This document shows positions 220 through 62,095 of a stretch of 64,000 nt of DNA, in pieces. The translations under genes and the position numbers were made by a program. The notes under the pieces are model-generated. The model was not told the DNA's origin. It saw only the letters and a program-made list of their open reading frames with translations, and did no database searches. Positions within the stretch are counted from its first letter, which is position 1. Every line of letters begins with the position of its first letter. Source of the stretch: Escherichia coli (lineage in GTDB: Bacteria > Pseudomonadota > Gammaproteobacteria > Enterobacterales > Enterobacteriaceae). The DNA is taken from NCBI RefSeq assembly GCF_029227855.1, contig NZ_CP074358.1, one strand, 5' to 3'.

Positions 220-2445
220 TCAGTCGTCATTTTCCAGCGCTGTTTTGAGCGCTTCCTGCTCCGGAGTCAGCTCGTTGCCGGACAGCATAACCTTCAACTT
301 CTCTTCGACTGCTGGCCAGTCATCAAAGAACGGACTGACCTGGTCACGCGCAATCCGGCGATATGCCCCTCGGTGGGAGCTGAAGACACTGGTCTGTAAT
401 CGTATCAACAGGTTAACAAGGCCTTCATCAGTGGTAGTAACTTCTCTGACCCATTGCTTCACGGTTTCACCTGAACTCATGTCTCTCCAGGCGTAGAGAT
501 ACCCGAGAAGAGACTTGCGCAGGAGAAGCTGTTGCTGAAGTTCTGGTTGATTCATACGTTCCGCAAACCTGTCACGCAACCGTTCCGTAATATCGCGACT
601 GAAAAGAGCATCTGAAGGCGAAGGTACTGCATTCTGAGCAAGTCCATGTTCCCAGATAAGATCCCGCATAAAATCGGCTATCCAGAACGGCGAAGCACCC
701 GTAACGATCAGTTTTTCCATAAGCGTGATCGTTCTGGTCTCATCAATATCCTGCATATGCTTCAGCAGATGCCGTACAACCTCATTAATGGCCATTTCAC
801 GCAGGGAAAACCATGGGTTACGGATACTGAAGCGAGTGCTCACCTCATCGGTGTGCTCGAAGAAAAAATGAACCAGTCCTGCGCACTCTTCGAAATTACG
901 TTCTCTTATCAGGCCTGGAGTCAGTCTGCTCAGTATATGTTCAAACCAGGTTCCGGACAGACTGCCCACACTGTTGATTTTTGAGAGCAGCAATTCAGAA
1001 AGCTGCTGCTGTTTTTCCGATACGCCAGCCTGTTCAAAAAGCTGTCTGAAGAATTCAGGTGGCAGAACATTCTGTGGTGAGGAGAAGGCAAAATAATATC
1101 GCCAGTGCGTCAGGCTGCTGAGTCGTTTACCGGTCGTCTGGATATGACGAAAATCCTCACTGACGGGCTCAAAAAGATTCAGATATTCATCATTATGTCC
1201 ACTGATACCTGGGATCCAGTCTGCAAGTGTCAGAAACGAGTCTGCATTTGATGCCCTGAACGTCTTCATACATCTGATAAGCCCCTCCCGGAAGTCTGCT
1301 TTCTCTCCGTCAGAAAGCATACCCTGACCGGTTTCAATCACGGACCGTTCTGTCAGGTAATGCTCTGTCCAGTCATACAGAGCCGGGTTTGTCACCCGTA
1401 TAAGCTGAAGCAGGCACAAATCAGGGAAATAAACAAAATCCCGCATCCCCGGATAAAGAAAAATCAGGGAATTAATGGCCTGATGGATTTCCCGTGGCGT
1501 CGAAAGTGCGGCACCATAGGTATCAGTCACCGCGATGAGATCCCTTACCATTCCAGAGTCTGGCGGTTGATTATTAATTTGCTGATATAGAGCCTCAGCC
1601 CGCTGGCGAAATTCATTACGTAAATCAAAGGCTTCAGGTCGGGGTAATTTAAAACTAAGCTGAATGATTTTCTGGAGATAACGGCTGCCATCTTCGATAT
1701 TCAGCGCATGTTCAACGGCATGAGTGATAATCTGCCTGTCATAACAGAGAATATGGGTAAAGCGGGGCAGATCGGCTACTGCACGCACAAGCCTGAACAC
1801 TTCCGCCACCTGGGATGGCTCCAGTCGGTCCAGATCATCCATGACAACAATGAACTTCAGATCCAGACTCACCAGTTGTCCTGCAATTTCAGCCCGAAGC
1901 TTTGTCGTGGTTTTCTGATCAACAGCCAGACGGCTGTCTGAAAATACCTTTATTCCGCCTGCTATCCAGTTAATAATGCTGGAAAACTGTCCGATATATT
2001 GAACCAGTGGAAGGACGCGCGATGAAGTATCCTGAGCATACTCAATCACTTTTTGAGCTTCCGGTGACAACAGATATTTACGCCAGAGCTTTTTGAAGCC
2101 CTTCGGGGGATAGCGTATTTCCATTTCCTGCTGGATAACCGTGGCAACCGGAAGAAAGAGCGCTTCAACCGGACTGCCGCCACTCAGCCAGGGAGAAATA
2201 TGCAGCACATGTGTGTGAGCATCTTTTTTCAGGGCAAGGTTTCTCAGGATCAGATTAAGGAGGCTTGTTTTACCCGATCCCCATGCACCTTCTATTCCGA
2301 CAACATTTGAAGCCTCCAGAGGAAGAGTAAGGATGGAACGGGATATATTTTCTGCGATATTACCGAAACCGTATCGATCCTCAGGTACATCTTCAACTGC
2401 CGCATCAAGCCCTTTCTGGTTCCACAGCTGCCTCAGTATCTTCAT
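220..2445 (-). CDS. pifA: KAP-family P-loop NTPase, 741 aa; probable PifA (phage T7 exclusion / abortive infection protein of F-like plasmids)
   Basis: Walker A GAWGSGKTS near N-terminus, Walker B-like hhhhDDLDR, size typical of KAP NTPases; PifA is a founding member of the KAP family; start 1 nt after upstream gene stop (TAATATG). Confidence 0.7.
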   Translation of the reverse strand: MKILRQLWNQKGLDAAVEDVPEDRYGFGNIAENISRSILTLPLEASNVVGIEGAWGSGKTSLLNLILRNLALKKDAHTHVLHISPWLSGGSPVEALFLPVATVIQQEMEIRYPPKGFKKLWRKYLLSPEAQKVIEYAQDTSSRVLPLVQYIGQFSSIINWIAGGIKVFSDSRLAVDQKTTTKLRAEIAGQLVSLDLKFIVVMDDLDRLEPSQVAEVFRLVRAVADLPRFTHILCYDRQIITHAVEHALNIEDGSRYLQKIIQLSFKLPRPEAFDLRNEFRQRAEALYQQINNQPPDSGMVRDLIAVTDTYGAALSTPREIHQAINSLIFLYPGMRDFVYFPDLCLLQLIRVTNPALYDWTEHYLTERSVIETGQGMLSDGEKADFREGLIRCMKTFRASNADSFLTLADWIPGISGHNDEYLNLFEPVSEDFRHIQTTGKRLSSLTHWRYYFAFSSPQNVLPPEFFRQLFEQAGVSEKQQQLSELLLSKINSVGSLSGTWFEHILSRLTPGLIRERNFEECAGLVHFFFEHTDEVSTRFSIRNPWFSLREMAINEVVRHLLKHMQDIDETRTITLMEKLIVTGASPFWIADFMRDLIWEHGLAQNAVPSPSDALFSRDITERLRDRFAERMNQPELQQQLLLRKSLLGYLYAWRDMSSGETVKQWVREVTTTDEGLVNLLIRLQTSVFSSHRGAYRRIARDQVSPFFDDWPAVEEKLKVMLSGNELTPEQEALKTALENDD

Positions 2446-2446
2446 A

Positions 2447-3538
2447 TTACAGATCTCCGTACAGGCAGCGCAGCCCGGTCAGGGCCTCCGCCAGCGGGCC
2501 TTCTTGACACCGCGTGGCGAGCTCCCGGACCAGCGTCTCAAAGGCCTCCGCCGGCATAAAAATCCGCAGGCCGTCTATCCCGAAGAAGCCCTCCGGCGTG
2601 ACGTTTCCGGGCGGGGAGAACATCACTCGCTCCCCCTGGTGACCGTGCGTCAGGGCTTCCGGATGCCGGGCATACAGCGTGAACAGGCCCAGCAGTTCGG
2701 ATAACGCTTCCCAGCCGTACGGCACCACGAAGTCCTGGCCGGTGATCAGCAGGTGCAGACGGGGTGTGGTGTACCAGGCCCCCGGGCGTTCTCCGGGGTG
2801 CTGGCCGTCAACGCGGATCTCCAGGCGCAGCGTGCCGGCCTCAATGGTTTCCGTGACGGCAGAAATAACCGGGCGCAGCTCCTGTGCCAGCGTTCTTGCC
2901 TGTTCTGTGTTCCAGTCCAGGCCGCGCAGCATCAACGGGAAAACAGCTTTCAGCCGCGGCAGGGTGAAGATTTCTGCCAGCACCGCGTCCGGCACCTCCG
3001 CCAGGCCAAAACAGTCGCTCTCGAGCGGACGCAGGAGGTGTTCGGCATACATCTGATCCACCACGGGGCGCAGCGCTGCCCGGAAGGCTTCAAACTCTTC
3101 CGTCCAGTTTTTCCCGGCCAGGCGGAAAATCCCCTTCAGGTAGTGACCGTCCACAGGGCGATCGTGCTCCACCTGCCAGGCCAGCAGGTTGCCAGTGATG
3201 TCCAGCAGCGTGTCCAGGGCCGGGAGTGTGGCCAGCCTATTATGCCCGCGCAGGAAGGCCTCCCTGACGTGAACCAGGACAAAGCGCAGTTCGTCGCGGG
3301 AGAGCGCTGACGTGCCGAAGGTCTGGCCCAGAATGATATGCCGGTACAGCTGCCGGACCGTGGCCTCCGGATCGGCAATGAGCTGAAAATACCCGTCACC
3401 GGGCGCGACCGTTTTCAGGCCGTCATCGAGGAAGCGTTCGGCTAGGGCGTTGACCGAAGTATTTTCCCGACCGGCACGCGTTTTCAGCGCCTCGATAAGT
3501 TTTTTGTGAAAACGCAGGTTAAGCTGGCTTAGCATCAT
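2447..3538 (-). CDS. pifC: 363 aa protein with N-terminal ribbon-helix-helix/Arc-like motif; probable PifC (RepC) autoregulator of the pif operon
   Basis: N-terminus LNLRFHKKLIEALKTRAGRENTSVNALAERFLDDGL resembles RHH DNA-binding domain; ~40 kDa; immediately upstream of and coupled to the KAP NTPase gene. Confidence 0.55.
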   Translation of the reverse strand: MMLSQLNLRFHKKLIEALKTRAGRENTSVNALAERFLDDGLKTVAPGDGYFQLIADPEATVRQLYRHIILGQTFGTSALSRDELRFVLVHVREAFLRGHNRLATLPALDTLLDITGNLLAWQVEHDRPVDGHYLKGIFRLAGKNWTEEFEAFRAALRPVVDQMYAEHLLRPLESDCFGLAEVPDAVLAEIFTLPRLKAVFPLMLRGLDWNTEQARTLAQELRPVISAVTETIEAGTLRLEIRVDGQHPGERPGAWYTTPRLHLLITGQDFVVPYGWEALSELLGLFTLYARHPEALTHGHQGERVMFSPPGNVTPEGFFGIDGLRIFMPAEAFETLVRELATRCQEGPLAEALTGLRCLYGDL

Positions 3539-4798: not shown

Positions 4799-5107
4799 GT
4801 GACTCACATGACAAAAACAGTATCAACCAGTAAAAAACCCCGTAAACAGCATTCGCCTGAATTTCGCAGTGAAGCCCTGAAGCTTGCTGAACGCATCGGT
4901 GTTACTGCCGCAGCCCGTGAACTCAGCCTGTATGAATCACAACTCTACAACTGGCGCAGTAAACAGCAAAATCAGCAGACGTCTTCTGAACGTGAACTGG
5001 AGATGTCTACCGAGATTGCACGTCTCAAACGCCAGCTGGCAGAACGGGATGAAGAGCTGGCTATCCTCCAAAAGGCCGCGACATACTTCGCGAAGCGCCT
5101 GAAATGA
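4799..5107 (+). CDS. IS3 OrfA (transposase N-terminal HTH part)
   Basis: 102 aa, helix-turn-helix and leucine-zipper-like C-terminus ([19 protein letters not shown]); inside the IS3 ends. Confidence 0.9.
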
Positions 5108-5970
5108 AGTATGTCTTTATTGAAAAACATCAGGCTGAGTTCAGCATCAAAGCAATGTGCCGCGTGCTCCGGGTGGCCCGCAGCGGCTGGTATACGTGGT
5201 GTCAGCGGCGGACAAGGATAAGCACGCGTCAGCAGTTCCGCCAACACTGCGACAGCGTTGTCCTCGCGGCTTTTACCCGGTCAAAACAGCGTTACGGTGC
5301 CCCACGCCTGACGGATGAACTGCGTGCTCAGGGTTACCCCTTTAACGTAAAAACCGTGGCGGCAAGCCTGCGCCGTCAGGGACTGAGGGCAAAGGCCTCC
5401 CGGAAGTTCAGCCCGGTCAGCTACCGCGCACACGGCCTGCCTGTGTCAGAAAATCTGTTGGAGCAGGATTTTTACGCCAGTGGCCCGAACCAGAAGTGGG
5501 CAGGAGACATCACGTACTTACGTACAGATGAAGGCTGGCTGTATCTGGCAGTGGTCATTGACCTGTGGTCACGTGCCGTTATTGGCTGGTCAATGTCGCC
5601 ACGCATGACGGCGCAACTGGCCTGCGATGCCCTGCAGATGGCGCTGTGGCGGCGTAAGAGGCCCCGGAACGTTATCGTTCACACGGACCGTGGAGGCCAG
5701 TACTGTTCAGCAGATTATCAGGCGCAACTGAAGCGGCATAATCTGCGTGGAAGTATGAGCGCAAAAGGTTGCTGCTACGATAATGCCTGCGTGGAAAGCT
5801 TCTTTCATTCGCTGAAAGTGGAATGTATCCATGGAGAACACTTTATCAGCCGGGAAATAATGCGGGCAACGGTGTTTAATTATATCGAATGTGATTACAA
5901 TCGGTGGCGGCGGCACAGTTGGTGTGGCGGCCTCAGTCCGGAACAATTTGAAAACAAGAACCTCGCTTAG
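5104..5970 (+). CDS. IS3 OrfB (transposase catalytic DDE part; expressed as OrfAB fusion by -1 frameshift)
   Basis: 288 aa with DDE/rve integrase core (WAGDITYL..., HTDRGGQY..., E in SFFHSLKVE). Confidence 0.9.
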
Positions 5971-9270: not shown

Positions 9271-9663
9271 GTGGACGATGAACGGAAAAGGAAAAAATTC
9301 ACACTTTATCTGCATCCGGAAAAAGCTGCAGACTTTCAAACTTTGGAAGCGATAGAGTCCGTTCCGCGTTCTGAGCGTGGTGAGCTGTTCCGGAATGCAT
9401 TTATTTCTGGAATGGCGTTACACCAACTTGATCCTCGCCTGCCTGTATTGCTGACTGCCATTTTGAGCGAGGAGTTTTCAGCAGATCAGGTTGTAACCTT
9501 ACTCAGTCAGACGACTGGATGGAAGCCTTCTCAGGCCGATATCAGAGCTGTGTTGACTGAACTCGGTGCTTTGCAATCTGCTGAAAAAATGCCTCCTTCT
9601 GCTACTGATTCGGTGCAGGAGGCAATGAATGATGTGCGCCTTAAAATGCAAAAATTATTCTGA
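9271..9663 (+). CDS. parR: ParR/StbB centromere-binding adaptor
   Basis: Small basic ORF directly after parM; in-frame GTG at 9271 chosen just after the parM stop (ORF-track ATG at 9235 would overlap parM by 32 nt). Confidence 0.65.
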   Translation: MDDERKRKKFTLYLHPEKAADFQTLEAIESVPRSERGELFRNAFISGMALHQLDPRLPVLLTAILSEEFSADQVVTLLSQTTGWKPSQADIRAVLTELGALQSAEKMPPSATDSVQEAMNDVRLKMQKLF

Positions 9664-9674
9664 TATATCAGAAT
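9657..9674. repeat. Perfect 18-bp palindrome attctgatatatcagaat containing the stop codons of both convergent genes (parR and impB)
   Basis: Read directly; TGA at 9661-9663 (+) and TGA at 9670-9668 (-) are symmetric within the palindrome. Confidence 0.8.
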
Positions 9675-10939
9675 GAAGCAATGGGGATCTCAGTCCATTG
9701 TGTTGTATACGAAGGCGAGAGCATTTCCCGTTTCATTTGCCATTCAGGGGCGGTTCCTCGCCCCGCAAACCACACTTTCCCTTTTCCCGACTGGTTCAGT
9801 TCATCGAGTGTTTTCATTAACTTTTCACTGTTTTTACGGGGCTGGATTTCATCAAATAATCCCGGCTGCGCTATACCCGATGGTGTGAAATCAGCCAGCA
9901 TGACTCCTGCCTTCATATAGCGGTACCCTTCACGCCAGACATGGTTTAAGGCTCTGCATGCGGCGGCAATAATGTCCCGGCTGTCCTGTGTGGGCAATGG
10001 AAGCTTTTCCACAGCGGCATTGCTGTAACAGGGTTCTTTTACTGCAAAGGGGGATGTCCGTACAAATGTCGTCACCTGCCGGCAATACTGACGCTCCCCA
10101 CGTAGTTTCTCTGCGGCCCGCTCTGCATACTGAACAACAGCCTGGTGCATGGCATCTTTGTCTGTGATTCGTTCACCAAAACTGCGACTACAGACAATCT
10201 GCTGTTTTGCCGGTGGTGCTTCTTCCAGGGATATGCAGGACTCGCCGTTGAGTTCGCGTACCGTACGCTCAAGAATGACGCTGAAGTTTTTCCGGATGAA
10301 TGCCGTGTTAGCCTGCGCCAGCTGCAGTGCTGTGTTAATACCCAGCGCATTCAGCTTTTCCGTCAGTCTGCGTCCTACTCCCCAGACCTCACCAACTGGC
10401 TGCAGCCCCAGTAGCTTCAAGGTCCGATTACGGTTTTCTGCCGTCAGCGCGACCACTCCGGAAAACTGTGGCCATTGCTTTGTTGCCCACTGTGCACTTT
10501 TAGCCAGCGTTTTTGTAGGCGCAATGCCCACCCCCATGGTGAGTCCTGTCCAGCTCTTTACCTGTTCCCTGAGCTGATGACCAAAAAACTCCGGAGAGAT
10601 GCAATGATTTATCCCCCGCAAATCAATAAACATTTCATCAATTGAGTAGGGCTCAACTGCGGGAGAAAGCGACTCCAGAACAGCCATGACCCGTTGGCTC
10701 ATGCTGTGGTACAGCGCATAATTGCTGGAAAATACATGTATTTTCTTCTCCAGGCGCATCTGTCTCACCTGAAACCAGGGCTGCCCCATTCTGATGCCAA
10801 GGGCTTTTGCCTCCGGGCTGCGCGCGATCACACAGCCATCGTTATTGCTGAGTACGATGACCGGTTCGTTGCGAAGGTCCGGGCGGAAAACTTTTTCACA
10901 TGAGGCGTAGAAACTGTTGATATCAGCCAGTGCAAACAT
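9668..10939 (-). CDS. impB: Y-family error-prone DNA polymerase catalytic subunit (UmuC/MucB/ImpB family)
   Basis: N-terminus MFALADINSFYASCE...VIVLSNNDGCVIARS, typical UmuC/DinB fold; 423 aa. Confidence 0.9.
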   Translation of the reverse strand: MFALADINSFYASCEKVFRPDLRNEPVIVLSNNDGCVIARSPEAKALGIRMGQPWFQVRQMRLEKKIHVFSSNYALYHSMSQRVMAVLESLSPAVEPYSIDEMFIDLRGINHCISPEFFGHQLREQVKSWTGLTMGVGIAPTKTLAKSAQWATKQWPQFSGVVALTAENRNRTLKLLGLQPVGEVWGVGRRLTEKLNALGINTALQLAQANTAFIRKNFSVILERTVRELNGESCISLEEAPPAKQQIVCSRSFGERITDKDAMHQAVVQYAERAAEKLRGERQYCRQVTTFVRTSPFAVKEPCYSNAAVEKLPLPTQDSRDIIAAACRALNHVWREGYRYMKAGVMLADFTPSGIAQPGLFDEIQPRKNSEKLMKTLDELNQSGKGKVWFAGRGTAPEWQMKREMLSPSYTTQWTEIPIASF

Positions 10940-11376
10940 CAGCGTAACTCCCGCGTCCTGTGTATCACGTGAGTGACAACACCAAAAATACAGATGTTTT
11001 CCGGATACAGTGTGCGGAATTCCGGGCTGTCTGAAACCGGCTCCAGTGCCGGGCGTGGGCGCAACAGCAGTCGTTTGACGGTGAACTCACCGTCGATCTC
11101 AGCGATAACGATGTCCCCGTGTTGTGGTTTTTCGGCCCTGTCCACTACCAGCAGATCACCATTCTGCACGCCAGCCTGGTTCATCGATTCACCGCTGGCG
11201 CGCAGAAAGAAGGTGGCTGCAGGTCTGCTGATGCAATAGCTGTTCAGATCCAGTTCCTGCTCAGCATAATCAGTGGCAGGCGAAGGAAAACCGGCCTGGC
11301 AACGATCGGCAAACAACGGTCGCACGTAACTGTCATCGCCTGAAGGGTCAGCCGGACGGTGATAAACGGTACTCAT
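10939..11376 (-). CDS. impA: UmuD/MucA/ImpA-like LexA-type S24 peptidase accessory subunit
   Basis: 145 aa; S24 self-cleaving peptidase motifs (…AGFPSPA… SM… VVDR… GDIVIAEIDGEFTVKRL). Confidence 0.9.
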   Translation of the reverse strand: MSTVYHRPADPSGDDSYVRPLFADRCQAGFPSPATDYAEQELDLNSYCISRPAATFFLRASGESMNQAGVQNGDLLVVDRAEKPQHGDIVIAEIDGEFTVKRLLLRPRPALEPVSDSPEFRTLYPENICIFGVVTHVIHRTRELR

Positions 11377-11621
11377 GCTGCAGGCAGCCAGCTGTCGTCC
11401 TGCCAGATTTCTTCCAGCAGAGACAGGATACGTTCTTTATCCTTGTCGTTGCGGGCTCCTGTGACAGATACAGACGGGGCGCTGCCCTGGTCAATACGCA
11501 GCCAGATTTCCGGGTAGTGTGGTTTCAGACGTTGTTCGATTTCATTCTGTAGCGCCTGAAGTGTGCCTGATTTGAGGTTTTTTGTGCTCTGGCGGTCGAA
11601 AAGAATTTCAATGCGGATCAT
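11373..11621 (-). CDS. impC: ImpC-like small protein, first gene of impCAB operon (82 aa)
   Basis: Start moved to MIRIEILFDR (ATG 11621, ggaga RBS); overlaps impA start; position and size match ImpC. Confidence 0.7.
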   Translation of the reverse strand: MIRIEILFDRQSTKNLKSGTLQALQNEIEQRLKPHYPEIWLRIDQGSAPSVSVTGARNDKDKERILSLLEEIWQDDSWLPAA

Positions 11622-11644
11622 GTTCTCATCTCCCTTTTCTTTTG

Positions 11645-11660
11645 CTGTATGTATATACAG
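11645..11660. promoter_or_regulatory. LexA (SOS) box CTGTATGTATATACAG upstream of impC
   Basis: Matches CTGT-N8-ACAG consensus, about 25 bp upstream of impC start. Confidence 0.75.
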
Positions 11661-12012
11661 TATTCTAATAACTGAATTCACACAGTCAAATGTCCTTATT
11701 GTGACTAAAAAACGCTCAGCTCTCTGAGTGTGTGCCTGTATGCCTGCTGTGGACTGCTGTGTCCAGCTTATCCACAGCATTATGCGCACGGTTCTGTGGA
11801 CAAAATACCTGGTTACCCAGGCCGTGCCGGCACGTTAACCGGGCTGCATCCGATGCAAGTGTGTCGCTGTTGCCGGCCTCCTCACCCGGTCACGTTTCGT
11901 CGTTCCTCCTCCACGCGCTGCGGCTTCGGGGCCGCACCTGCATTCGTATGCGGTCGCCCGGTTACAGGTGCGGCACGGCCTGATGGAGGCCGCATGTAAG
12001 AGGAGAATTCCC

Positions 12013-12939
12013 ATGCCAAACTGGTGCGCCAATCGTATGTATTTTTCTGCCGAACCGGCACAGATTGCTGAGATTAAACGACTGGCCAGCGGTGCCGTCA
12101 CACCGTTTTATCGCCGCGCCACAAATGAAGGTATTCAGTTGTTTCTGGCCGGAAGTGCCGGACTTCTGCAAACCACTGAAGATGTGCGGTTTGAACCATG
12201 CCCCGGACTGAGCGCTGCCGGACGTGGCGTTGTATCGACGGAAAATATTGCGTTCACCCGCTGGCTGACACTCCTGCAGGACAGTGTACTGCTGGATGAG
12301 CAAAACTGCCTGATGCTGCATGAACTCTGGCTGCAGAGCGGTACTGGACAGCGTCGCTGGGAAGGATTACCGGATGATGCCAGGGAAACCATCACTGTGC
12401 ATTTCACCGCAAAAAGAGGTGACTGGTGTGACATCTGGGGTAACGAGGATATATCGGTGTGGTGGAACCGTCTGTGTGACAACGTACTGCCGGAAAAAAC
12501 CATGCCGTTTGACCTGTTGACGGTTCTGCCGACCCGCCTGGATGTTGAAGTAAATGGCTTTAACGGTGGTGTTCTGAACGGTGTTCCTTCTGCATATCAC
12601 TGGTATACAGAACGGTATGGCGTGAAGTGGCCTTGTGGGTATGACCTGAATATCAGCAGTCAGGGAGAAAACTTCATTCAGGTTGATTTCGACACGCCGT
12701 GGTGTCAGCCGGAAAGCGACGTTATTGCAGAATTAAGCCGCCGTTTCAGCTGCACGCTGGAGCACTGGTTTGCCGAACAGGGCTGTGATTTCTGTGGCTG
12801 GCAGTTGTATGAGCGCGGAGAGCTCGTTGATGTGCTGTGGGGGGAACTGGAATGGTCTTCCCCGACAGATGACGATGAGCTGCCGGAAGTCACCGGACCT
12901 GCGTGGATAGTCGACAATGTGGCGCATTATGGCGGATGA
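12013..12939 (+). CDS. Conserved hypothetical protein (308 aa), Cys/Trp-rich, first + strand gene of the leading-region block
   Basis: ATG 12013 with aggaga RBS; followed by hairpin terminator; no catalytic motif recognised. Confidence 0.55.
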   Translation: MPNWCANRMYFSAEPAQIAEIKRLASGAVTPFYRRATNEGIQLFLAGSAGLLQTTEDVRFEPCPGLSAAGRGVVSTENIAFTRWLTLLQDSVLLDEQNCLMLHELWLQSGTGQRRWEGLPDDARETITVHFTAKRGDWCDIWGNEDISVWWNRLCDNVLPEKTMPFDLLTVLPTRLDVEVNGFNGGVLNGVPSAYHWYTERYGVKWPCGYDLNISSQGENFIQVDFDTPWCQPESDVIAELSRRFSCTLEHWFAEQGCDFCGWQLYERGELVDVLWGELEWSSPTDDDELPEVTGPAWIVDNVAHYGG

Positions 12940-12952
12940 AGTATGACGGAGA

Positions 12953-12978
12953 CGGGCGGGCAACCGCCCGTTTCTTTT
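12953..12978 (+). terminator. Rho-independent terminator-like hairpin
   Basis: cgggcggg-caac-cgcccg followed by tttctttt. Confidence 0.55.
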
Positions 12979-13323
12979 CCGGTAAAGGATGTCGCCGTGC
13001 TCCTCTTTTTACTGCGCCGGCTGACGCGGCGCGGCATAAACGCTGCCTGTGGTCAGTGTCCCGCGTCCGGTGGGTACGGGACGGGCGCTTTTACCGCTCC
13101 CGGCTGGCGTCGGTGACAGTGTACGCCAGCCTGTCGCCCTTTTCTGATGAGCGCCCTTCAAGCCGCTTTCGCGGCATAGCCTTGCCGTCAAAAAGACGAC
13201 GGCTGCGGTATTCCACGGTCGGCCTGACCCGTTACCGGACGCGGTGAACAGCCCACAGGCAGCGGGGAACGGGCACCACAGGGGTGCCCTCCCGGTGCCT
13301 TCTGTAAGAGAAGGAGTGTTGTT

Positions 13324-14007
13324 ATGTCCCGTTTTGTCCTCGGTAACTGCATCGATGTTATGGCCCGTATTCCTGATAACGCCATTGATTTCATACTGAC
13401 TGACCCGCCATATCTCGTCGGTTTCCGTGACCGTTCCGGGCGCACCATCGCCGGTGATAAAACCGACGAATGGCTGCAACCGGCCTGTAATGAAATGTAC
13501 CGCGTGCTGAAAAAAGATGCGCTGATGGTGAGCTTCTATGGCTGGAACCGCGTCGATCGCTTTATGGCCGCCTGGAAAAATGCGGGATTCAGCGTGGTTG
13601 GCCACCTGGTATTTACCAAAACCTACACATCGAAGGCCGCATATGTGGGCTATCGCCACGAATGCGCTTACATCCTGGCAAAAGGGCGTCCGGCGCTGCC
13701 TCAGAAGCCATTGCCCGACGTGCTGGGCTGGAAATATTCAGGCAACCGCCATCACCCGACGGAAAAGCCTGTTACCAGCCTGCAACCACTGATTGAGAGC
13801 TTCACACACCCGAACGCGATTGTGCTGGACCCGTTTGCAGGCAGCGGCTCAACCTGTGTGGCTGCCCTTCAGTCCAGACGCCGGTATATCGGTATCGAGC
13901 TGCTTGAACAGTATCACCGTGCCGGACAGCAACGACTGGCCGCCGTGCAACGGGCCATGCAGCAGGGGGCCGCGAATAATAACTGGTTTGAACCGGAGGC
14001 TGCGTAA
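13324..14007 (+). CDS. Orphan DNA methyltransferase (N6-adenine/N4-cytosine type, beta-class motif order)
   Basis: DPPY motif IV (ILTDPPYLVGF) precedes motif I (FAGSGSTCVAA); RBS agaaggag; no restriction endonuclease partner nearby. Confidence 0.85.
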   Translation: MSRFVLGNCIDVMARIPDNAIDFILTDPPYLVGFRDRSGRTIAGDKTDEWLQPACNEMYRVLKKDALMVSFYGWNRVDRFMAAWKNAGFSVVGHLVFTKTYTSKAAYVGYRHECAYILAKGRPALPQKPLPDVLGWKYSGNRHHPTEKPVTSLQPLIESFTHPNAIVLDPFAGSGSTCVAALQSRRRYIGIELLEQYHRAGQQRLAAVQRAMQQGAANNNWFEPEAA

Positions 14008-17004: not shown

Positions 17005-17169
17005 TACAGGGGCAGGCGGTGGAGGCCGCCTGTCAGTCCGCGCGAAAACCCCTGGCAGGCTGACGCCTGCCGGAAGGGAAGCGGACCACGCTGGCGCGTC
17101 GCCCGTTACCCTTCCCGTCTGTGATGTGTCTGACTCAGGAGTGTTTCTTTCTTATGTTATGGAACTGTT

Positions 17170-17625
17170 CCTGATGTTGTTGTTCCTTTATCTGCTGCTC
17201 TGATTCTGACTACTGCAGTGTTGTTCTGTCTGCCGGGCGCACCTTCGGCTCCCGGCATCCCGGCAAAAGGCCGCCGGGATGTAAGGGGCAACGCCGTTTC
17301 GCGCACGCGCTCTCCGTCGTTGCGGCGGGTCCCTGCTCATTGCCTGCCGGTGCCACACACCCGTATGAGTCCCTGTCGCCGGGGGCTGATACAGCCACAA
17401 CCTGCCGCACTGACTGTCCAGGGTAAATGAACAGCCCACAAAATTTTTTACCCAAAACCCGGTAAAAAATTTTGCGTTCTGCCCAGGACAGGTGCGTCAG
17501 GCCGTGGCAGTGATGCCCCTTGCGGCGAAGGTTCTCAAACGGGTGAAGTTCATACCACAGGGAATACAGCAGCAGGTTCCCGCGAAACGTCAAAACCGCG
17601 GCTCCCGAAACTCAACGGGTGATGT
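17170..17625. repeat. Frpo/ssi-like structured non-coding repeat, copy A (short form)
   Basis: Shares 5' block ctgattctgactactgcagtgttg...cgggcgcaccttcggctcccggc and 3' block with copies B and C; lacks ~190 bp internal block; hairpin 17437-17476. Confidence 0.6.
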
Positions 17626-17853
17626 TCTTTAAAAATCAGGATTTATTTCAGGCTCCGGCAATACGCATTTATGTGTTCTGTCAGTCATCCGGCTGGCAGG
17701 TAATGAGAACGCAGGAACAGAAGGAGGAAAACACCGGAGAACGTCAGACGCAGATATGAAAAAAGCAGGTCAGGGACCTGCTTAATCCACACCGCAGAGA
17801 CTGCACGAACAGTCTTTACGGTTTCATTAATTAACGTCATAAGAGGCTAAATT

Positions 17854-18084
17854 ATGACAGTAAGTATTGTTTCACCTTCCGCAGCGGCTGTAAAGCCCCG
17901 CCGTCATCCCCGTTGCAGACGCGAAGACATCCCCGCGCCGGAAATTGACCCCGTGCTGAAAGCCTTCGGGCGACACATTGCCCGGAGTTTTCACCGGGGG
18001 CGTGGTGTACACATCCCCGCCATGAAAAACACGGCCTTCGGGCAGGTGCTCCGCACACTCGAACTGAAACGCGCTTTTAACTGA
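17854..18084 (+). CDS. Small basic hypothetical protein (76 aa)
   Basis: First ORF after repeat copy A; RBS agagg about 10 nt upstream. Confidence 0.35.
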   Translation: MTVSIVSPSAAAVKPRRHPRCRREDIPAPEIDPVLKAFGRHIARSFHRGRGVHIPAMKNTAFGQVLRTLELKRAFN

Positions 18085-20264: not shown

Positions 20265-20965
20265 GTTACTGATGATGTTGTTGTTCCTGCTACTGCTACT
20301 GCTACTGCTACTGCTACTGCTACTGTTCTTCTTTTTCCTGCTGCTCTGATTCTGACTACTGCAGTGTTGTCCTGTCTGCCGGGCGCACCTTCGGCTCCCG
20401 GCTGCCTGGCGGCATCCGGTCGTCAGGCCCGACTCCGACAGGCAGCTGCTGGCGCACCTGCCAGTCTCCGCCGAACCCGCTGGCGCGGTTTCGGGCTGTC
20501 GCTACGGTCCGATGCGTGAAAACCCCGGGCTTGCAGCGACCGTTCCGGTCGCGCCACCCTTGTCGCGCCGTGGCCTGCGCTCCTGGCATCCCGGCAAAAG
20601 GCCGCCGGGATGTAAGGGGCAACGCCGTTTCGCAAACCGCGCTTCACGTCGTTGCGGCGGGTCCCTGCCCGTTGTTCTGTCCGGTGCCATTCACCTGTTT
20701 AAGCCCCTGTCGCCGGGGGCAAAGACAGCCACAACCGTCTCCGCCAGTCCAGGGGTGAAATGTACATCCCGCAAAACTTTTTGCCCAAAAGCAGGCAAAA
20801 ACTTTTGCGGTCTGCCCCCGGACAGTCGTTTCCGTCCGTGGCAGTGATGCCCCTTGCGGCGAAGGTTCTCAAAAAGGTGATGGTGAATACCGGAGGGAAC
20901 AAAAGGCAGGTCCCCGCAAAACGTCAAAACCGCGGCTCCCGAAACTCAAAAGATGATGGGGGCTG
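20265..20965. repeat. Frpo/ssi-like structured non-coding repeat, copy B (long form), immediately upstream of ssb
   Basis: Near-identical to copy C over ~620 bp; hairpin ccgcaaaactttttgcc-caaaagca-ggcaaaaacttttgcgg at 20769-20810. Confidence 0.6.
20287..20325. repeat. Hexanucleotide microsatellite (CTGCTA)x6.5
   Basis: Six perfect tandem ctgcta units plus ctg, at the 5' edge of repeat copy B; absent from copies A and C. Confidence 0.9.
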
Positions 20966-20991
20966 AAAACATCAACAGAAGGAGGCACATC

Positions 20992-21827
<836 letters not shown>

Positions 21828-23905: not shown

Positions 23906-24340
23906 ATGAAAACTGAACTGACCCTGAATGCCCTGCAGTCCATGAACGCACAGGAATATGAAGATATCCGTGCTGCGGGAAGCGATATGCGCCGTAATCT
24001 CACTCACGAGGTGATGCGTGAAGTGGACGCACCGGCTAACTGGATGATGAATGGCGAGTATGGCAGTGAGTTCGGGGGCTTTTTCCCCGTCCAGGTTCGT
24101 TTCACGCCAGCCCACGAACGTTTCCACCTGGCGTTATGTTCACCGGGCGATGTCTCTCAGGTCTGGGTGCTGGTTCTGGTGAATGCCGGTGGTGAGCCGT
24201 TTGCGGTGGTTCAGGTACAGCGGCGGTTTGCACCGGAAGCCGTCAGCCATTCACTGGCACTGGCGGCGTCACTGGACGCGCAGGGGTACAGCGTCAGTGA
24301 CATCATCCATATCCTGATGGCGGAAGGAGGTCAGGCATGA
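23906..24340 (+). CDS. psiB: Plasmid SOS inhibition protein B
   Basis: 144 aa matching recalled PsiB ([25 protein letters not shown]...). Confidence 0.9.
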
Positions 24341-25056
24341 GCGCACGTTCACAGGCACTGGTTCCTCTCAGCACAGAGCAACAGGCCGCATGGCGGGCGG
24401 TGGCGGAGACCGAAAAACGCCGCCATCAGGGTAACACGCTGGCTGAATATCCGTATGCGGGGGCGTTTTTCCGCTGTCTGAACGGAAGCCGCAGGATATC
24501 GCTGTCTGACCTGCGATTTTTCATGCCGTCCCTGACCGCAGAAGAACTGCACGGCAACCGTCTTCAGTGGCTGTATGCCATCGATGTGCTGATTGAAACA
24601 CAGGGCGAGGTCTGCCTCCTTCCCCTTCCCGGTGATGCAGCAGAGCGCTTGTTCCCGTCGGTGCGGTTTCGTGTCAGGGAACGCAGTCGCCATAAATCCG
24701 CGCTGGTCATGCAGAAGTACAGCCGCCAGCAGGCGAGGGAGGCAGAGCAGAAAGCCCGTGCGTACCAGGCGCTGGTCGCTCAGGCTGAAATCGAACTGGC
24801 ATTCCATTCGCCGGAAACAGTCGGAAGCTGGCATGCACGCTGGAGTGACCGGGTGGCAGAGCATGACCTGGAAACCCTGTTCTGGCAGTGGGGCGAGCGT
24901 TTTCCGTCACTGGCCGGAATGGAACGCTGGCAGTGGCAGGATATGCCATTCTGGCAGGTCATCGCAGAGGCTGGTATGGCGGCAAGGGTGGTTGGTCATG
25001 CTGTTCGTGAGATGGAGCGGTGGATGGTGCCGAACAAACTCCGGGAGGCAGCGTGA
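24337..25056 (+). CDS. psiA: Plasmid SOS inhibition protein A
   Basis: 239 aa, coupled to psiB (ATGA overlap), matches recalled PsiA. Confidence 0.9.
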
Positions 25057-25249
25057 TGCGGCAACAATCACACGGATTTCCCGTGAACGGTCTGAATGAG
25101 CGGATTATTTTCAGGGAAAGTGAGTGTGGTCAGCGTGCAGGTATATGGGCTATGATGTGCCCGGCGCTTGAGGCTTTCTGCCTCATGACGTGAAGGTGGT
25201 TTGTTGCCGTGTTGTGTGGCAGAAAGAAGATAGCCCCGTAGTAAGTTAA

Positions 25250-25320
25250 TTTTCATTAACCACCACGAGGCATCCCTATGTCTAGTCCACATCAGGATAG
25301 CCTCTTACCGCGCTTTGCGC
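25250..25320 (-). ncRNA. sok: Candidate Sok-like antisense RNA of the hok/mok locus (approximate coordinates)
   Basis: Inferred from hok/sok architecture; region antisense to the mok translation-initiation region. Confidence 0.35.
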
Positions 25321-25490
25321 AAGGAGAAGAAGGCCATGAAACTACCACGAAGTTCCCTTGTCTGGTGTGTGTTGATCGTGTGTCTCACACTGTTGATATT
25401 CACTTATCTGACACGAAAATCGCTGTGCGAGATTCGTTACAGAGACGGACACAGGGAGGTGGCGGCTTTCATGGCTTACGAATCCGGTAA
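25278..25490 (+). CDS. mok: Mok-like overlapping reading frame (modulator of hok translation)
   Basis: 70-codon ORF overlapping hok in another frame, as in hok/sok loci. Confidence 0.5.
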
Positions 25491-25494: not shown

Positions 25495-25744
25495 CAACCT
25501 GGAGGCGGGCGCAGGCCCGCCTTTTCAGGACTGATGCTGGTCTGACTACTGAAGCGCCTTTATAAAGGGGCTGCTGGTTCGCCGGTAGCCCCTTTCTCCT
25601 TGCTGATGTTGTACGGGCATGAACAACCTGACTTCAGGAAGGTCGTTTCCCTTCAGGAACGGGGATGAACGCGCGCCTGCGGCGCCCGTTCTTTTCCCCC
25701 GCCTTCTCTGGTTATGGCCTGTCAGAAATCACATCACCTTCCCT

Positions 25745-26395
25745 GTGATTATTCTCTTTTTCTTCCTGCTCTGATTCTGACTACTGCAGTGTTGTCCTGT
25801 CTGCCGGGCGCACCTTCGGCTCCCGGCTGCCTGGCGGCATCCGGTCGTCAGGCCCGACTCCGACAGGCAGCTGCTGGCGCACCTGCCAGTCTCCGCCGAA
25901 CCCGCTGGCGCGGTTTCGGGCTGTCGCTACGGTCCGATGCGTGAAAACCCCGGGCTTGCAGCGACCGTTCCGGTCGCGCCGCCTCTGTCGCGCCGTGGCC
26001 TGCGCTCCTGGCATCCCGGCAAAAGGCCGCCGGGATGTAAGGGGCAACGCCGTTTCGCAAACCGCGCTTCACGTCGTTGCGGCGGGTCCCTGCCCGTTGT
26101 TCTGTCCGGTGCCATTCACCTGTTTAAGCCCCTGTCGCCGGGGGCTGATACAGCCACAACCTGCCGCACTGACTGTCCAGGGTAAATGAACAGCCCGCAA
26201 AACTTTTTGCCCAGAAGCAGGCAAAAACTTTTGCGGTCTGCCCCCGGACAGTCGTTTCCGGCCGTGGCAGTGATGCCCCATGCGGCGAAGGTTCTCAAAC
26301 AGGTGATGGTGAATACCGGAGGGAACAAAAGGCAGGTCCCCGCAAAACGTCAAAACCGCGGCTCCCGAAACTCAACAGATGATGGGGGCTGAAAA
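25745..26395. repeat. Frpo/ssi-like structured non-coding repeat, copy C (long form)
   Basis: Near-identical to copy B; hairpin 26195-26236; 3' part resembles copy A (ctgatacagccacaacctgccgcactgactgtccagggtaaatgaacagccc). Confidence 0.6.
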
Positions 26396-26416
26396 CCAGA
26401 GAGAGGAGAAAGCAGG

Positions 26417-26823: not shown

Positions 26824-27588
26824 ATGCGATTAGCTTCCCGTTTTGGTCGGTATAATTCCATCCGCCGTGAACGTCCTTTAACGGATGATGAATTAATGCA
26901 GTTCGTGCCTTCGGTATTTTCCGGTGATAAACCTGAGTCCCGGAGTGAACGTTATACGTATATTCCAACAATCAATATCATCAATAAGTTACGTGATGAA
27001 GGTTTCCAGCCATTCTTTGCCTGTCAGAGTCGGGTTCGTGATTTGGGACGTCGCGAATACAGTAAACATATGTTACGTCTTCGCAGGGAAGGGCATATTA
27101 ACGGACAGGAAGTTCCTGAAATTATCCTGCTTAATTCACATGATGGTTCATCCAGTTATCAGATGATCCCCGGAATTTTTCGTTTTGTCTGCACAAATGG
27201 CCTGGTGTGCGGAAATAATTTTGGCGAAATCCGCGTTCCACATAAAGGTGATATTGTCGGGCAGGTTATCGAGGGAGCGTATGAAGTGCTCGGTGTCTTT
27301 GATAAGGTCACTGATAATATGGAGGCGATGAAAGAAATTCATCTTAACAGTGACGAGCAACATTTATTTGGCAGAGCTGCACTGATGGTCAGGTATGAAG
27401 ATGAAAATAAAACGCCAGTGACACCTGAACAGATAATTATTCCCCGTCGTCGGGAAGACAAACAGAACGATCTCTGGACAACCTGGCAGCGGGTTCAGGA
27501 GAATATGATAAAAGGTGGATTATCGGGGCGAAGTGCCTCCGGAAAAATACCAGGACAAGAGCCATTACAGGTATTGATGGTGATATAA
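26824..27588 (+). CDS. Conserved leading-region protein (254 aa), oriT-proximal
   Basis: RBS aaaggag; no catalytic motif recognised. Confidence 0.6.
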   Translation: MRLASRFGRYNSIRRERPLTDDELMQFVPSVFSGDKPESRSERYTYIPTINIINKLRDEGFQPFFACQSRVRDLGRREYSKHMLRLRREGHINGQEVPEIILLNSHDGSSSYQMIPGIFRFVCTNGLVCGNNFGEIRVPHKGDIVGQVIEGAYEVLGVFDKVTDNMEAMKEIHLNSDEQHLFGRAALMVRYEDENKTPVTPEQIIIPRRREDKQNDLWTTWQRVQENMIKGGLSGRSASGKIPGQEPLQVLMVI

Positions 27589-27940
27589 GAATCAACAAGG
27601 CGTTATGGGTGATTGCCGAACAGTTCAGAAAGTGGAAGTCATGATAATATAAGTAAAGCCCCGAAAAAATTTTCGGGGCTTTACTTATATTATCATTTTT
27701 CGGCATTGCTGTGTCGTCTGATATACCTCAATTTCATCAACCGGCTTTCCGGTTGTCTGTAAATATTGTGCCCGCGAAAAATGGTCTGGCAGGAGGCTGC
27801 GCAGTTACCGGGTATATATAAGATGGGTTCCCGCTTCGCGGGGCTTCGGCCAGTCAGTATTGTCACTCATATGATATTTTTGTGTGTGGCCTTCCATGCC
27901 GCTTTTGCGGCATAACCGGTATCTGACAATGTCTGTAAGA

Positions 27941-28499: not shown

Positions 28500-28860
28500 A
28501 AAAGGCTCAACAGGTTGGTGGTTCTCACCACCAAAAGCACCACACCCCACGCAAAAACAAGTTTTTGCTGATTTTTCTTTATAAATAGAGAGTTATGAAA
28601 AATTAGTTTCTCTTACTCTCTTTATGATATTTAAAAAAGCGGTGTCGGCGCGGCTACAACAACGCGCCGACACCGCTTTGTAGGGGTGGTGCTGACTATT
28701 TTTATAAAAAACATTATTTTATATTAGGGGTGCTGCTAGCGGCGCGGTGTGTTTTTTTATAGGATACCGCTAGGGGCGCTGCTAGCGGTGCGTCCCTGTT
28801 TGCATTATGAATTTTAGTGTTTCGAAATTAACTTTATTTTATGTTCAAAAAAGGTAATCT
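28500..28860. other. oriT: Origin of transfer (oriT) with F-type nic region and inverted/direct repeats
   Basis: Bottom strand carries ttgcgtggggtgtggtgcttttggtggtgagaacc (F-like nic sequence, nick near 28540/28541); 14-bp inverted repeat gcggtgtcggcgcg/cgcgccgacaccgc at 28639-28676; direct repeats gctgctagcgg(c/t)gcg. Confidence 0.75.
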
Positions 28861-61551: not shown

Positions 61552-61888
61552 ACCTTATTGGGTGTATTAAAAACAGTAGGCTGCCAAAGTCTTAAACAAG
61601 TTTCAATTCTCCATGACTGCTCAACATCAGACAGAGGGAATTCCCATTCTGGACCAGCGGGAGCATACGAACAATAATTTACGGTTTCGCGCTATAGCTG
61701 GCTCAAGTTAGGTTGGACCCTGAATCTCCAGACAACCAATATCTGATCGCGCCAGTGGTGGCAGTTATTAAGCAACAGGGAATGTAGTATTATCGCGGCG
61801 GGTGTCTGAGCCTTTCTGGTTCAGGCAAGACGCAGGTACCAGAAATGCGAAGACCCCACTTGTTAATCCATTAACTCGTGAGGTCTGC

Positions 61889-62095
61889 ATGAAGTACCTT
61901 AACACTACTGATTGTAGCCTCTTCCTTGCAGAGAGGTCAAAGTTTATGACGAAATATGCCCTTATCGGGTTGCTCGCCGTGTGCGCCACGGTGTTGTGTT
62001 TTTCACTGATATTCAGGGAACGGTTATGTGAGCTGAATATTCACAGAGGAAATACAGTGGTGCAGGTAACTCTGGCCTACGAAGCACGGAAGTAA
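61889..62095 (+). CDS. srnB: SrnB/Hok-family membrane toxin (68-aa frame; Hok-like core from internal Met at 61946)
   Basis: MKYLNTTDCSLFLAERSKFMTKYALIGLLAVCATVLCFSLIFRERLCELNIHRGNTVVQVTLAYEARK; hairpin cggggac-ggaa-gtccccg downstream at ~62104-62128. Confidence 0.85.
   Translation: MKYLNTTDCSLFLAERSKFMTKYALIGLLAVCATVLCFSLIFRERLCELNIHRGNTVVQVTLAYEARK

Follow-up and report, generated by a model that had tools for sequence, protein, structure and literature searches.

The window, a stretch of 64,000 nucleotides of Escherichia coli DNA, carries on its minus strand (9668–11621) an intact impC-impA-impB operon whose products are, in this order, a DinI-like protein, a self-cleaving subunit of the UmuD type and a Y-family polymerase resembling UmuC. 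The operon is the classical plasmid-borne impCAB, known from thousands of enterobacterial plasmids, and is the plasmid counterpart of dinI plus umuDC. We interpret it as a LexA-repressed operon in its customary place, where the leading region ends farthest from oriT, on a conjugative plasmid of the IncFII/F type, on which the imp and psi modules act in sequence rather than as antagonists; we assign this reading a probability of roughly 0.88.

The three genes are co-oriented in the order dinI-like, umuD-like and umuC-like, and their stop and start codons are coupled. ImpC (11373–11621, minus strand; 82 aa) is a small protein that scored 65 bits against the Pfam DinI family (PF06183, cut-off 24) and matched the DinI structure 1ghh with an E value of 7e-6. 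Its score against the NCBIfam DinI equivalog was 41 bits (cut-off 111), which makes it a member of the broader DinI-like family and not a DinI equivalog. The impC stop codon shares an ATGA overlap with the start codon of impA (10939–11376, minus strand), which encodes the UmuD-like S24 self-cleaving subunit of 145 aa. ImpA matched the UmuD subfamily model NF007621 with 143 bits (cut-off 110) as well as Pfam Peptidase_S24. In the alignment with UmuD (8gmt_B, E value 3e-36), residues Ala28-Gly29 of ImpA correspond to Cys24-Gly25, Ser64 to Ser60 and Lys101 to Lys97. The impA stop and impB start codons share a TGATG overlap, and the same one-base overlap joins umuD and umuC of E. coli.

ImpB (9668–10939, minus strand; 423 aa) is the catalytic subunit of a UmuC-like Y-family DNA polymerase. 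It aligned over its full length (1–421 of 422) with the UmuC subfamily model NF002955, scoring 793.7 bits against a cut-off of 431, and contains the Pfam domains IMS, IMS_C, IMS_HHH and DUF4113. Its catalytic acidic residues are D6 and, within the SIDE motif, D101 and E102. Compared with the depositor-named proteins of p15A37 (LC567050.1), ImpC and ImpA are 100% identical and ImpB is 98% identical, its mismatches being concentrated in the final ~10 residues. These identities and the family assignments agree with the original prediction that the locus is an imp operon. At least 765 plasmid records carry the imp region with ≥99% identity. We also considered a terminator common to the convergent stbB and impB genes; the 18-bp palindrome at 9656–9673 has a folding energy of only −5.8 kcal/mol (z 0.02), equal to that of shuffled sequences, and was rejected.

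Direct reading of the sequence places a Shine-Dalgarno motif (GGGAG, 11630–11634, minus strand) 8 nt 5′ of the impC ATG. Further upstream we identified a strong sigma-70-type promoter, P_imp (11662–11689, minus strand), composed of the −35 hexamer TTGACT (11689–11684), a 16-nt spacer and the −10 hexamer TAGAAT (11667–11662). The hexamers match at 10 of 12 positions, the best score in the region. The LexA operator (SOS box) at 11643–11662 reads TACTGTATATACATACAGCA on the minus strand. The final base of the −10 hexamer is also the first base of this 20-mer, so that bound LexA would overlie the start site as well as the edge of the −10 element. Just upstream of P_imp, a terminator-like hairpin followed by a T-run (11705–11728, minus strand; CTCAGAGAGCTGAG then CGTTTTTTAG) may insulate the promoter.

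Scored against the LexA consensus TACTG(TA)5CAGTA, the 20-mer matches at 18 of 20 positions and is the sole site within three mismatches in the 64 kb; its core, CTGTATGTATATACAG, was found exactly once (11645–11660; 0 expected from shuffles). A consensus LexA box upstream of impC, as had been predicted, is thus present and unique, and the interval proposed for the operon with its box, 9668–11660, starts precisely at the impB stop codon and finishes where the LexA box ends. The window contains 51 CTG-N10-CAG sites, the runner-up reaching 12/20, which is chance level; a score of 18 was never reached in 200 shuffles. LexA boxes sought near the psiB, ssb and tra promoters did not rise above chance (best 12/20). 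The CTGT...ACAG core is unchanged in seven aligned alleles, and the adjoining bases vary.

The same 20-mer is listed for impCAB on the IncI1 plasmid pTF2 with a heterology index (HI) of 1.60, and in a LexA-defective (SOS-constitutive) host carrying pTF2, a setting that reflects the lexA mutation and not damage, ImpC, ImpA and ImpB were 21-, 9- and 2-fold more abundant, respectively (PMC12211044). The predicted SOS control of imp is therefore supported on a near-identical sequence. Based on the identity of the operators, LexA is expected to bind the allele in the window as well, the promoter spacer being 18 nt in pTF2 and 16 nt here. That the CTGT-N8-ACAG palindrome could be a chance match or the site of another protein, with imp constitutive or otherwise regulated, has in our estimate next to no probability. 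One further CTGT-N8-ACAG match does occur in the window by chance, and the link of this particular allele to LexA is read from its sequence. However, a match of this quality was never attained in shuffles, the operator touches the −10 hexamer, its core has stayed constant in diverged alleles whose surrounding bases differ, and the identical operator on pTF2 confers LexA-dependent protein levels (PMC12211044).

The spacer of 16 nt represents a rare promoter allele and is the only local peculiarity of the locus; it measures 18 nt in the aligned I-complex alleles and in one other aligned IncF allele. A second LexA box was considered and rejected. pTF2 has a weak second LexA-like site, AACTGAATCCACACACAGTC (HI 13.5; PMC12211044), and the homologous stretch in the window is 2 bp shorter, leaving CTG-N8-CAG, which is not of the LexA type. 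The shorter spacer thus removes this weak site.

The operon most closely resembles impCAB of I-complex plasmids (TP110, R64, ColIb-P9, pTF2, pMS7163B and pESBL) and of the Shigella virulence plasmid in gene order, stop/start overlaps and −35/−10 hexamers. The likeness to IncI1/I-complex impCAB extends to the identical LexA 20-mer, to the proteins (ImpC and ImpA 100%, ImpB 98%) and to the neighbours, the operon lying between a partition module and a DUF1281/yfaB gene. Besides the length of the P_imp spacer, two differences are apparent. The backbone here is IncFII/MOBF/MPF_F, whereas theirs is MPF_I, and the final ~10 ImpB residues differ, next to a parM/stbB-type partition module here and a parA/parB-type module there.

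Similarity to the chromosomal umuDC and dinI genes of E. coli includes an S24 subunit whose cleavage-site context and Ser/Lys dyad are shared, a UmuC-subfamily polymerase, a DinI-type RecA modulator and LexA control. The N-terminal arm of ImpA is longer than that of UmuD, and Ala-Gly replaces Cys-Gly at the cleavage site. The imp locus also differs from the chromosomal genes in being plasmid-borne, in carrying its dinI-like gene within the same operon and in encoding an ImpC that falls under the DinI equivalog cut-off. To our knowledge, the mucAB, samAB and rumAB operons do not contain a third, dinI-like gene. The umuDC homologues mucAB (pKM101), samAB and rumAB (R391) of other mobile elements mark the end of leading-region anti-defence islands, and our operon is like them in lying at the oriT-distal limit of its leading region and in having an orientation unsuited to transcription from the transferred strand (PMC11541004).

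The psiB gene, which encodes the conjugation SOS inhibitor (23906–24340, plus strand; 273 bits against the NF010255 equivalog, cut-off 100), and psiA (24337–25056, plus strand; 419 bits against NF010258, cut-off 243) are adjacent and co-oriented with a 4-base overlap. They start 12.2 kb from the LexA box, matching the 12 kb originally given. An F-type oriT nick-site motif, GTGT/GGTGCTTTT, has a single exact match (28533–28545, minus strand), flanked by the SLT gene and traM; from established knowledge of the F and R100 oriT we take this match to be the nick site. Because the motif lies on the minus strand, this strand is the transferred (T) strand. The impCAB operon is 16.9 kb from nic, inside the leading block. 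It had been described as sitting next to the leading region, but it in fact forms that region's known distal boundary: Samuel et al. 2024 found umuDC-like operons at the far edge of leading-region islands, about 90% of them not oriented for early expression (PMC11541004).

Orientation distinguishes impCAB from the zygotically induced genes. Both nic and impCAB are on the minus strand, whereas psiB, psiA and the plasmid ssb gene (20992–21531; 375 bits against NF010292, cut-off 265) are on the plus strand. For impCAB the T-strand is the sense strand and hence no template for transcription, so that double-stranded DNA is needed. For psiB, ssb and the other plus-strand leading genes the T-strand is the template, which makes them readable from incoming ssDNA via hairpin promoters. 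Candidates for such promoters are present in the window. A dispersed repeat of the Frpo/ssi type, a candidate class 1 ssDNA promoter, occurs in three copies (20310–20970, minus strand; 17164–17636; 25735–26396), and the T-strand at 20560–20960 folds into a hairpin of ~330 nt (−116.6 kcal/mol, z −9.0), with ssb as the first gene after it, directly 3′. The hairpin scan agreed with folding in locating strong T-strand hairpins at 13.0, 17.3, 20.6 and 26.1 kb. The most distal of these (13021–13260, minus strand; z −8.7) is a candidate class 3 ssDNA promoter just 5′ of a methylase gene (13324–14007, plus strand; 496 bits against NF010253). In pESBL, a class 3 promoter lies 5′ of M.EcoGIX (PMC12672017), and the hairpin may be its equivalent, judged by likeness of position and not by sequence comparison.

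At P_imp itself, the hairpin scan detected no large T-strand hairpin that would rebuild the −35 and −10 elements; small local hairpins are all that accompany this linear, duplex-type promoter. The intergenic DNA upstream of imp does have some T-strand secondary structure (z about −5 with mononucleotide shuffles, −2.8 with dinucleotide shuffles), and ssDNA might conceivably play some role there. We also considered whether an inverted repeat of ~165 nt at 11818–11982 could be an ssDNA promoter arranged back-to-back with P_imp. The significance of this repeat is modest (z −2.8, dinucleotide shuffles), and the hairpin at 13021–13260 was preferred as the candidate for the published methylase promoter because it is much stronger.

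The original prediction saw an opposing logic in SOS-induced imp and SOS-suppressing psi genes. Both modules do reside on one plasmid, but strand orientation and timing take away most of the opposition between them. Were they truly antagonistic, RecA in plasmid-bearing cells would be held inactive by the plasmid's own PsiB and PsiA, imp would be muted and its LexA box would be a relic carried along by linkage. The presence of both modules on one replicon and the lowering of SOS induction by over-expressed PsiB (PMC2958807) are in line with this. Against it, psiB is expressed transiently, from ssDNA promoters that do not work as duplex DNA (PMC2958807, PMC12672017), the imp ORFs are complete and retain every catalytic residue, and strong purifying selection acts on the imp genes of I-complex plasmids (PMC10286972). 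Moreover, the imp plasmids TP110 and pINV confer UV protection and mutagenesis according to Runyen-Janecky 1999 and Lodwick 1990, as cited by PMC12211044 and PMC10286972, and these effects need active RecA. We consider such antagonism very improbable.

In the sequential reading that we favour, the minus strand, nicked at ~28.54 kb, would enter the recipient with its 5′ end leading, as the nic motif and its strand indicate. The plus-strand ssb, parB-like, psiB, psiA, methylase and anti-restriction genes would then be transiently transcribed from ssDNA, as suggested by their orientation, by the Frpo/ssi-type T-strand hairpins in the window and by the ssDNA transcription of leading genes published for F, ColIb-P9 and pESBL. 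As published for PsiB, its binding to free RecA would prevent the incoming ssDNA from triggering SOS; R64drd and R100-1, both with psiB, caused no SOS induction in E. coli recipients, and PsiB of F is reportedly expressed too weakly for full SOS suppression (PMC2958807). The imp operon would be silent at first, since an ordinary duplex sigma-70 promoter in the orientation seen here should not fire before the complementary strand is made. After duplex formation, host LexA would hold P_imp off via the near-consensus operator, LexA being intact in the recipient partly because PsiB had kept RecA quiet. Repression of this kind agrees with the report that overexpressed impCAB is toxic (PMC10286972).

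Once the plasmid is established, the ssDNA promoters would be silent and no more PsiB would be made, and DNA damage would activate RecA and lead to LexA cleavage. The very strong operator (HI 1.6) would rank imp among the last and most damage-dependent SOS genes. ImpC would temper the co-protease activity of RecA, and ImpA would be cut at Ala28-Gly29 by its Ser64/Lys101 dyad, residues that are in place here. ImpA′2-ImpB would then act as a pol V-like translesion polymerase providing UV protection and mutagenesis. The activities of ImpA and of this polymerase are those described in the literature on TP110, pINV and UmuD′2C.

The location of imp in the leading region also suggests that the operon might be expressed briefly in each new transconjugant, either in the interval between synthesis of the second strand and binding of LexA to the new operator, or through residual RecA* lowering LexA. 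The outcome would be a burst of ImpC, acting with PsiB as an extra moderator of RecA, or a short mutagenic window after transfer. Such a pulse would suit the distance of imp from nic within the leading block, the DinI-like nature of ImpC, the first and most strongly induced product, and the possibly incomplete suppression of SOS by F-type PsiB. PMC4151985 offers a precedent in plasmid-borne error-prone polymerases that raise mutation after horizontal transfer, and our literature search found no published measurement against the idea. Nevertheless, the orientation of imp is opposite to that of all zygotically induced genes, P_imp is without a large hairpin promoter, and its near-consensus operator answers to a host protein that is already present, unlike a plasmid-encoded repressor. 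Samuel et al. concluded that such operons are not expressed early (PMC11541004). In pESBL recipients, only the six ssDNA-promoter operons were induced; genes outside them were repressed at 15 min and had recovered by 30 min (PMC12672017). We therefore regard the pulse as unlikely. We give slightly less credence still to the idea that the edge placement is itself functional, with each transfer producing, upon completion of the second strand, a short LexA-escaping pulse of ImpC and ImpAB that is tuned by PsiB and, on this plasmid, by the rare 16-nt-spacer allele, which is devoid of the second weak LexA site.

The original prediction held the system to be known in outline, and the impCAB operon, its SOS box, SOS induction, overexpression toxicity, island-edge position and “wrong” orientation for early expression are indeed already published. 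Our literature search on psiB together with imp or umu expression returned genome descriptions and reviews only. We found no paper measuring imp expression in fresh transconjugants with versus without psiB, and the mutation rate in this setting likewise appears unmeasured. The question is incremental, its expected outcome would be unsurprising, and part of the answer is probably contained in the existing pESBL RNA-seq data. The finding is real but ordinary and carries little weight as a discovery. If the placement of imp were functional after all, new transconjugants would cross a brief RecA-modulated or mutagenic state that aids the adaptation of plasmid and host to each other. More generally, plasmid-borne error-prone polymerases can increase mutation supply in antibiotic-stressed hosts.

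Three minus-strand ORFs make up the operon identified in the original prediction as impCAB: impC (11621–11373, 82 aa), impA (11376–10939, 145 aa) and impB (10939–9668, 423 aa), joined by ATGA and TGATG overlaps. ImpB matched the UmuC subfamily model over its full length (794 bits, cut-off 431), comprises IMS, IMS_C, HhH and DUF4113 domains, and carries the acidic residues D6, D101 and E102. ImpA belongs to the UmuD subfamily (143 bits, cut-off 110) and also matched Peptidase_S24; in its alignment with the UmuD structure 8gmt_B (E 3e-36), Ala28-Gly29 falls on the cleavage site and Ser64 and Lys101 on the catalytic dyad. Pfam places ImpC in the DinI-like family (65 bits), and the protein also matches the DinI structure 1ghh; its score against the NCBIfam DinI equivalog model is under the cut-off. 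These family assignments, together with 100%, 100% and 98% identity to the proteins that the depositors of LC567050.1 named from impC, impA and impB, bear out the identification, and the limits of the predicted interval, 9668–11660, coincide with the impB stop codon and the outer edge of the LexA box.

The LexA box was equally well placed upstream of impC. The motif CTGTATGTATATACAG occurs once in the window (11645–11660; chance expectation 0), and the 20-bp site containing it (11643–11662) shares 18 of its 20 bases with the consensus TACTG(TA)5CAGTA; nowhere else in the window is there a site with three or fewer mismatches. Among all 51 CTG-N10-CAG sites of the 64-kb window, the second best scored 12/20, the level of shuffled sequence, and none of 200 shuffles reached 18/20. 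On the minus strand, the order is TTGACT, a 16-nt spacer, TAGAAT, the LexA 20-mer, 7 nt, GGGAG, 8 nt and ATG. The −10 hexamer and the LexA site share one base, the final T of the former and the first base of the latter, so bound LexA would sit over both the −10 edge and the transcription start. The IncI1 plasmid pTF2 has an identical 20-mer, TACTGTATATACATACAGCA, with a heterology index (HI) of 1.60, and in an SOS-constitutive lexA mutant its ImpC, ImpA and ImpB rose 21-fold, 9-fold and 2-fold, respectively (PMC12211044). The shuffle statistics, the position at a promoter, conservation across alleles and the pTF2 proteomics (PMC12211044) rule out a palindrome arising by chance.

The sigma-70-type promoter upstream of impC, P_imp (11662–11689), is a rare allele. 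Its spacer (11668–11683) is 16 nt long (GTGTGAATTCAGTTAT) with an internal EcoRI site, whereas among the alleles aligned it is 18 nt in four from the I-complex and one other from IncF; being 2 bp shorter, the allele in the window lacks the CTG-N10-CAG spacing of a weak second LexA-like site reported in pTF2 (PMC12211044). The 241-bp promoter region reached at least 99% identity in only ~20 of 4174 matching plasmid records. The 2.5-kb imp region did so in at least 765 PLSDB plasmids, and at least 5000 PLSDB records, mostly from Escherichia, Salmonella, Klebsiella and Shigella, match it at 80% or more. Most differences between ImpB and its I-complex counterpart fall in the last ~10 residues, and the end of impB abuts a parM/stbB-type partition module here but a parA/parB-type module in the I-complex, which looks like a recombination joint. 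The spacer and the ImpB end are small variations on a known element. Just upstream of P_imp lie a terminator-like hairpin with a T-run (11728–11705) and a cluster of CTGTGGAC / TCCACAG motifs (11745–11803), possibly binding sites for a regulator. The cluster has two direct and two inverted copies, making overlapping palindromes.

At the other end of the operon, a perfect 18-bp palindrome (ATTCTGATATATCAGAAT, 9656–9673) holds the stop codons of the convergent stbB (plus strand) and impB (minus strand). We considered it as a terminator for both genes and rejected it: the weak RNA fold (−5.8 kcal/mol, z 0.02) makes this role unconvincing. Another IncF plasmid carries a deletion derivative (NZ_OU342920.1, 2883–3630) in which a truncated, 180-nt impC, together with the imp promoter, is fused straight to a shortened psiB, with impAB and the entire distal leading region gone.

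The window represents an IncFII, F-type conjugative plasmid with CopA, FinP and the traJ leader, and its best-matching record is typed MOBF/MPF_F. The F-type oriT nick motif (F/R100), GTGT|GGTGCTTTT, occurs once, on the minus strand (28533–28545), and traM comes after the oriT region. This makes the minus strand the one that is transferred (T-strand), with lower-coordinate DNA entering first. The predicted SOS inhibitor genes psiB (23906–24340) and psiA (24337–25056) are present on the plus strand, as are ssb (20992–21531), a parB-like leading-region gene and a methylase gene (13324–14007); all five have the incoming strand as template. Hok/sok-type loci (Rfam sok) lie just after psiA (25162–25338) and near the IncFII replicon (61800–61956). 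A KAP-family P-loop NTPase (741 aa) followed by a 363-aa protein of no assigned function (220–3538, minus strand), an IS3-family element (4799–5970) and, beyond it, a tyrosine recombinase and a ParA/CopG pair form a putative cargo or defence-like module.

Three copies of a dispersed repeat of the Frpo/ssi type, the hairpin-type ssDNA promoters of leading regions, occur at 17164–17636, 20310–20970 and 25735–26396, and fold on the T-strand as very stable long hairpins (20560–20960: −116.6 kcal/mol, z −9.0). In pESBL recipients at 15 min, class 1 Frpo/ssi and additional promoter classes drive six operons, up to ~500-fold, and conventional promoters recover only by ~30 min (PMC12672017); the T-strand hairpins of the window match this published picture. 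A homology-free scan added a strong hairpin directly 5′ of the methylase gene (13021–13260, z −8.7), probably corresponding to what was described in pESBL as the "class 3" ssDNA promoter of M.EcoGIX. If so, the overlapping "hypothetical" ORF (12936–13247), which had no Pfam match, may be spurious. The annotated antisense RNA AS-pc01 (Rfam, antisense to pHK01_035; 17760–17859), ~120 nt past the first Frpo/ssi copy, may be linked to ssDNA-promoter activity. A further T-strand hairpin signal (27481–27840, z about −10.7) lies near oriT, between a DUF945/DUF932 gene and an SLT (orf169-like) gene. We found no duplex sigma-70 promoter for the divergent DUF1281/yfaB gene (ATG ~12037). In the interval separating this gene from P_imp, a 27-nt inverted repeat (11818–11844/11956–11982; 81% complementary, 111 nt apart) is predicted to form a ~165-nt hairpin (z −2.8 against dinucleotide shuffles). 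This region has three substitutions in ~230 nt relative to an I-complex allele and may act as another ssDNA promoter or as an ssi element.

The distance from the nick site to impCAB is 16.9 kb; the operon is past the last strong hairpin and runs in the opposite direction to the leading genes. Its sense strand is the T-strand and P_imp is an ordinary duplex promoter, so imp should be unreadable before the complementary strand has been made. A pulse of zygotic imp expression following second-strand synthesis is improbable, being opposed by this orientation, by the operator strength and by the pESBL expression pattern (PMC12672017). The idea that PsiB mutes imp permanently conflicts with the transience of psiB expression and with imp genes that are intact and, in I-complex plasmids, under purifying selection (PMC10286972).

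Both the arrangement of impCAB and psiB and the logic behind it have been published. Lodwick et al (1990) defined the operon on TP110, and Runyen-Janecky et al (1999) showed that it provides protection from UV and mutagenesis in Shigella, both as cited in PMC12211044/PMC10286972; for the I-complex plasmid pMS7163B, forcing expression of impCAB caused a severe growth defect (PMC10286972); umuCD homologues mark where leading-region islands end, and about 90% of such operons are reported to face away from the direction needed for early expression (Samuel et al, 2024, Nature; PMC11541004); and SOS is not induced in E. coli recipients of R64drd and R100-1, which carry psiB (Baharoglu et al, PMC2958807). 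The observation behind the original prediction is confirmed and its interpretation supported.

Most likely, the psiB/ssb and imp modules work one after the other, as indicated by the orientation, operator, residues and hairpins computed in the window and by analogy with ssDNA transcription, PsiB action and SOS induction of imp published for close relatives. During entry, ssDNA promoters would drive a short-lived burst of SSB and PsiB synthesis, and PsiB would stop RecA activation on the T-strand, leaving LexA intact. Once the second strand is made, the duplex P_imp would at once be bound by host LexA at its near-consensus operator, so the toxic operon would stay off; we infer that new transconjugants show no imp pulse. 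In the established host, with the ssDNA promoters silent and PsiB gone, real DNA damage would lead to LexA cleavage and imp derepression. HI relates to the induction order of SOS genes, and the strong operator suggests that derepression would come late and only at high damage. ImpC would then temper RecA co-protease activity, and ImpA would cleave itself, allowing ImpA'2-ImpB to carry out translesion synthesis.
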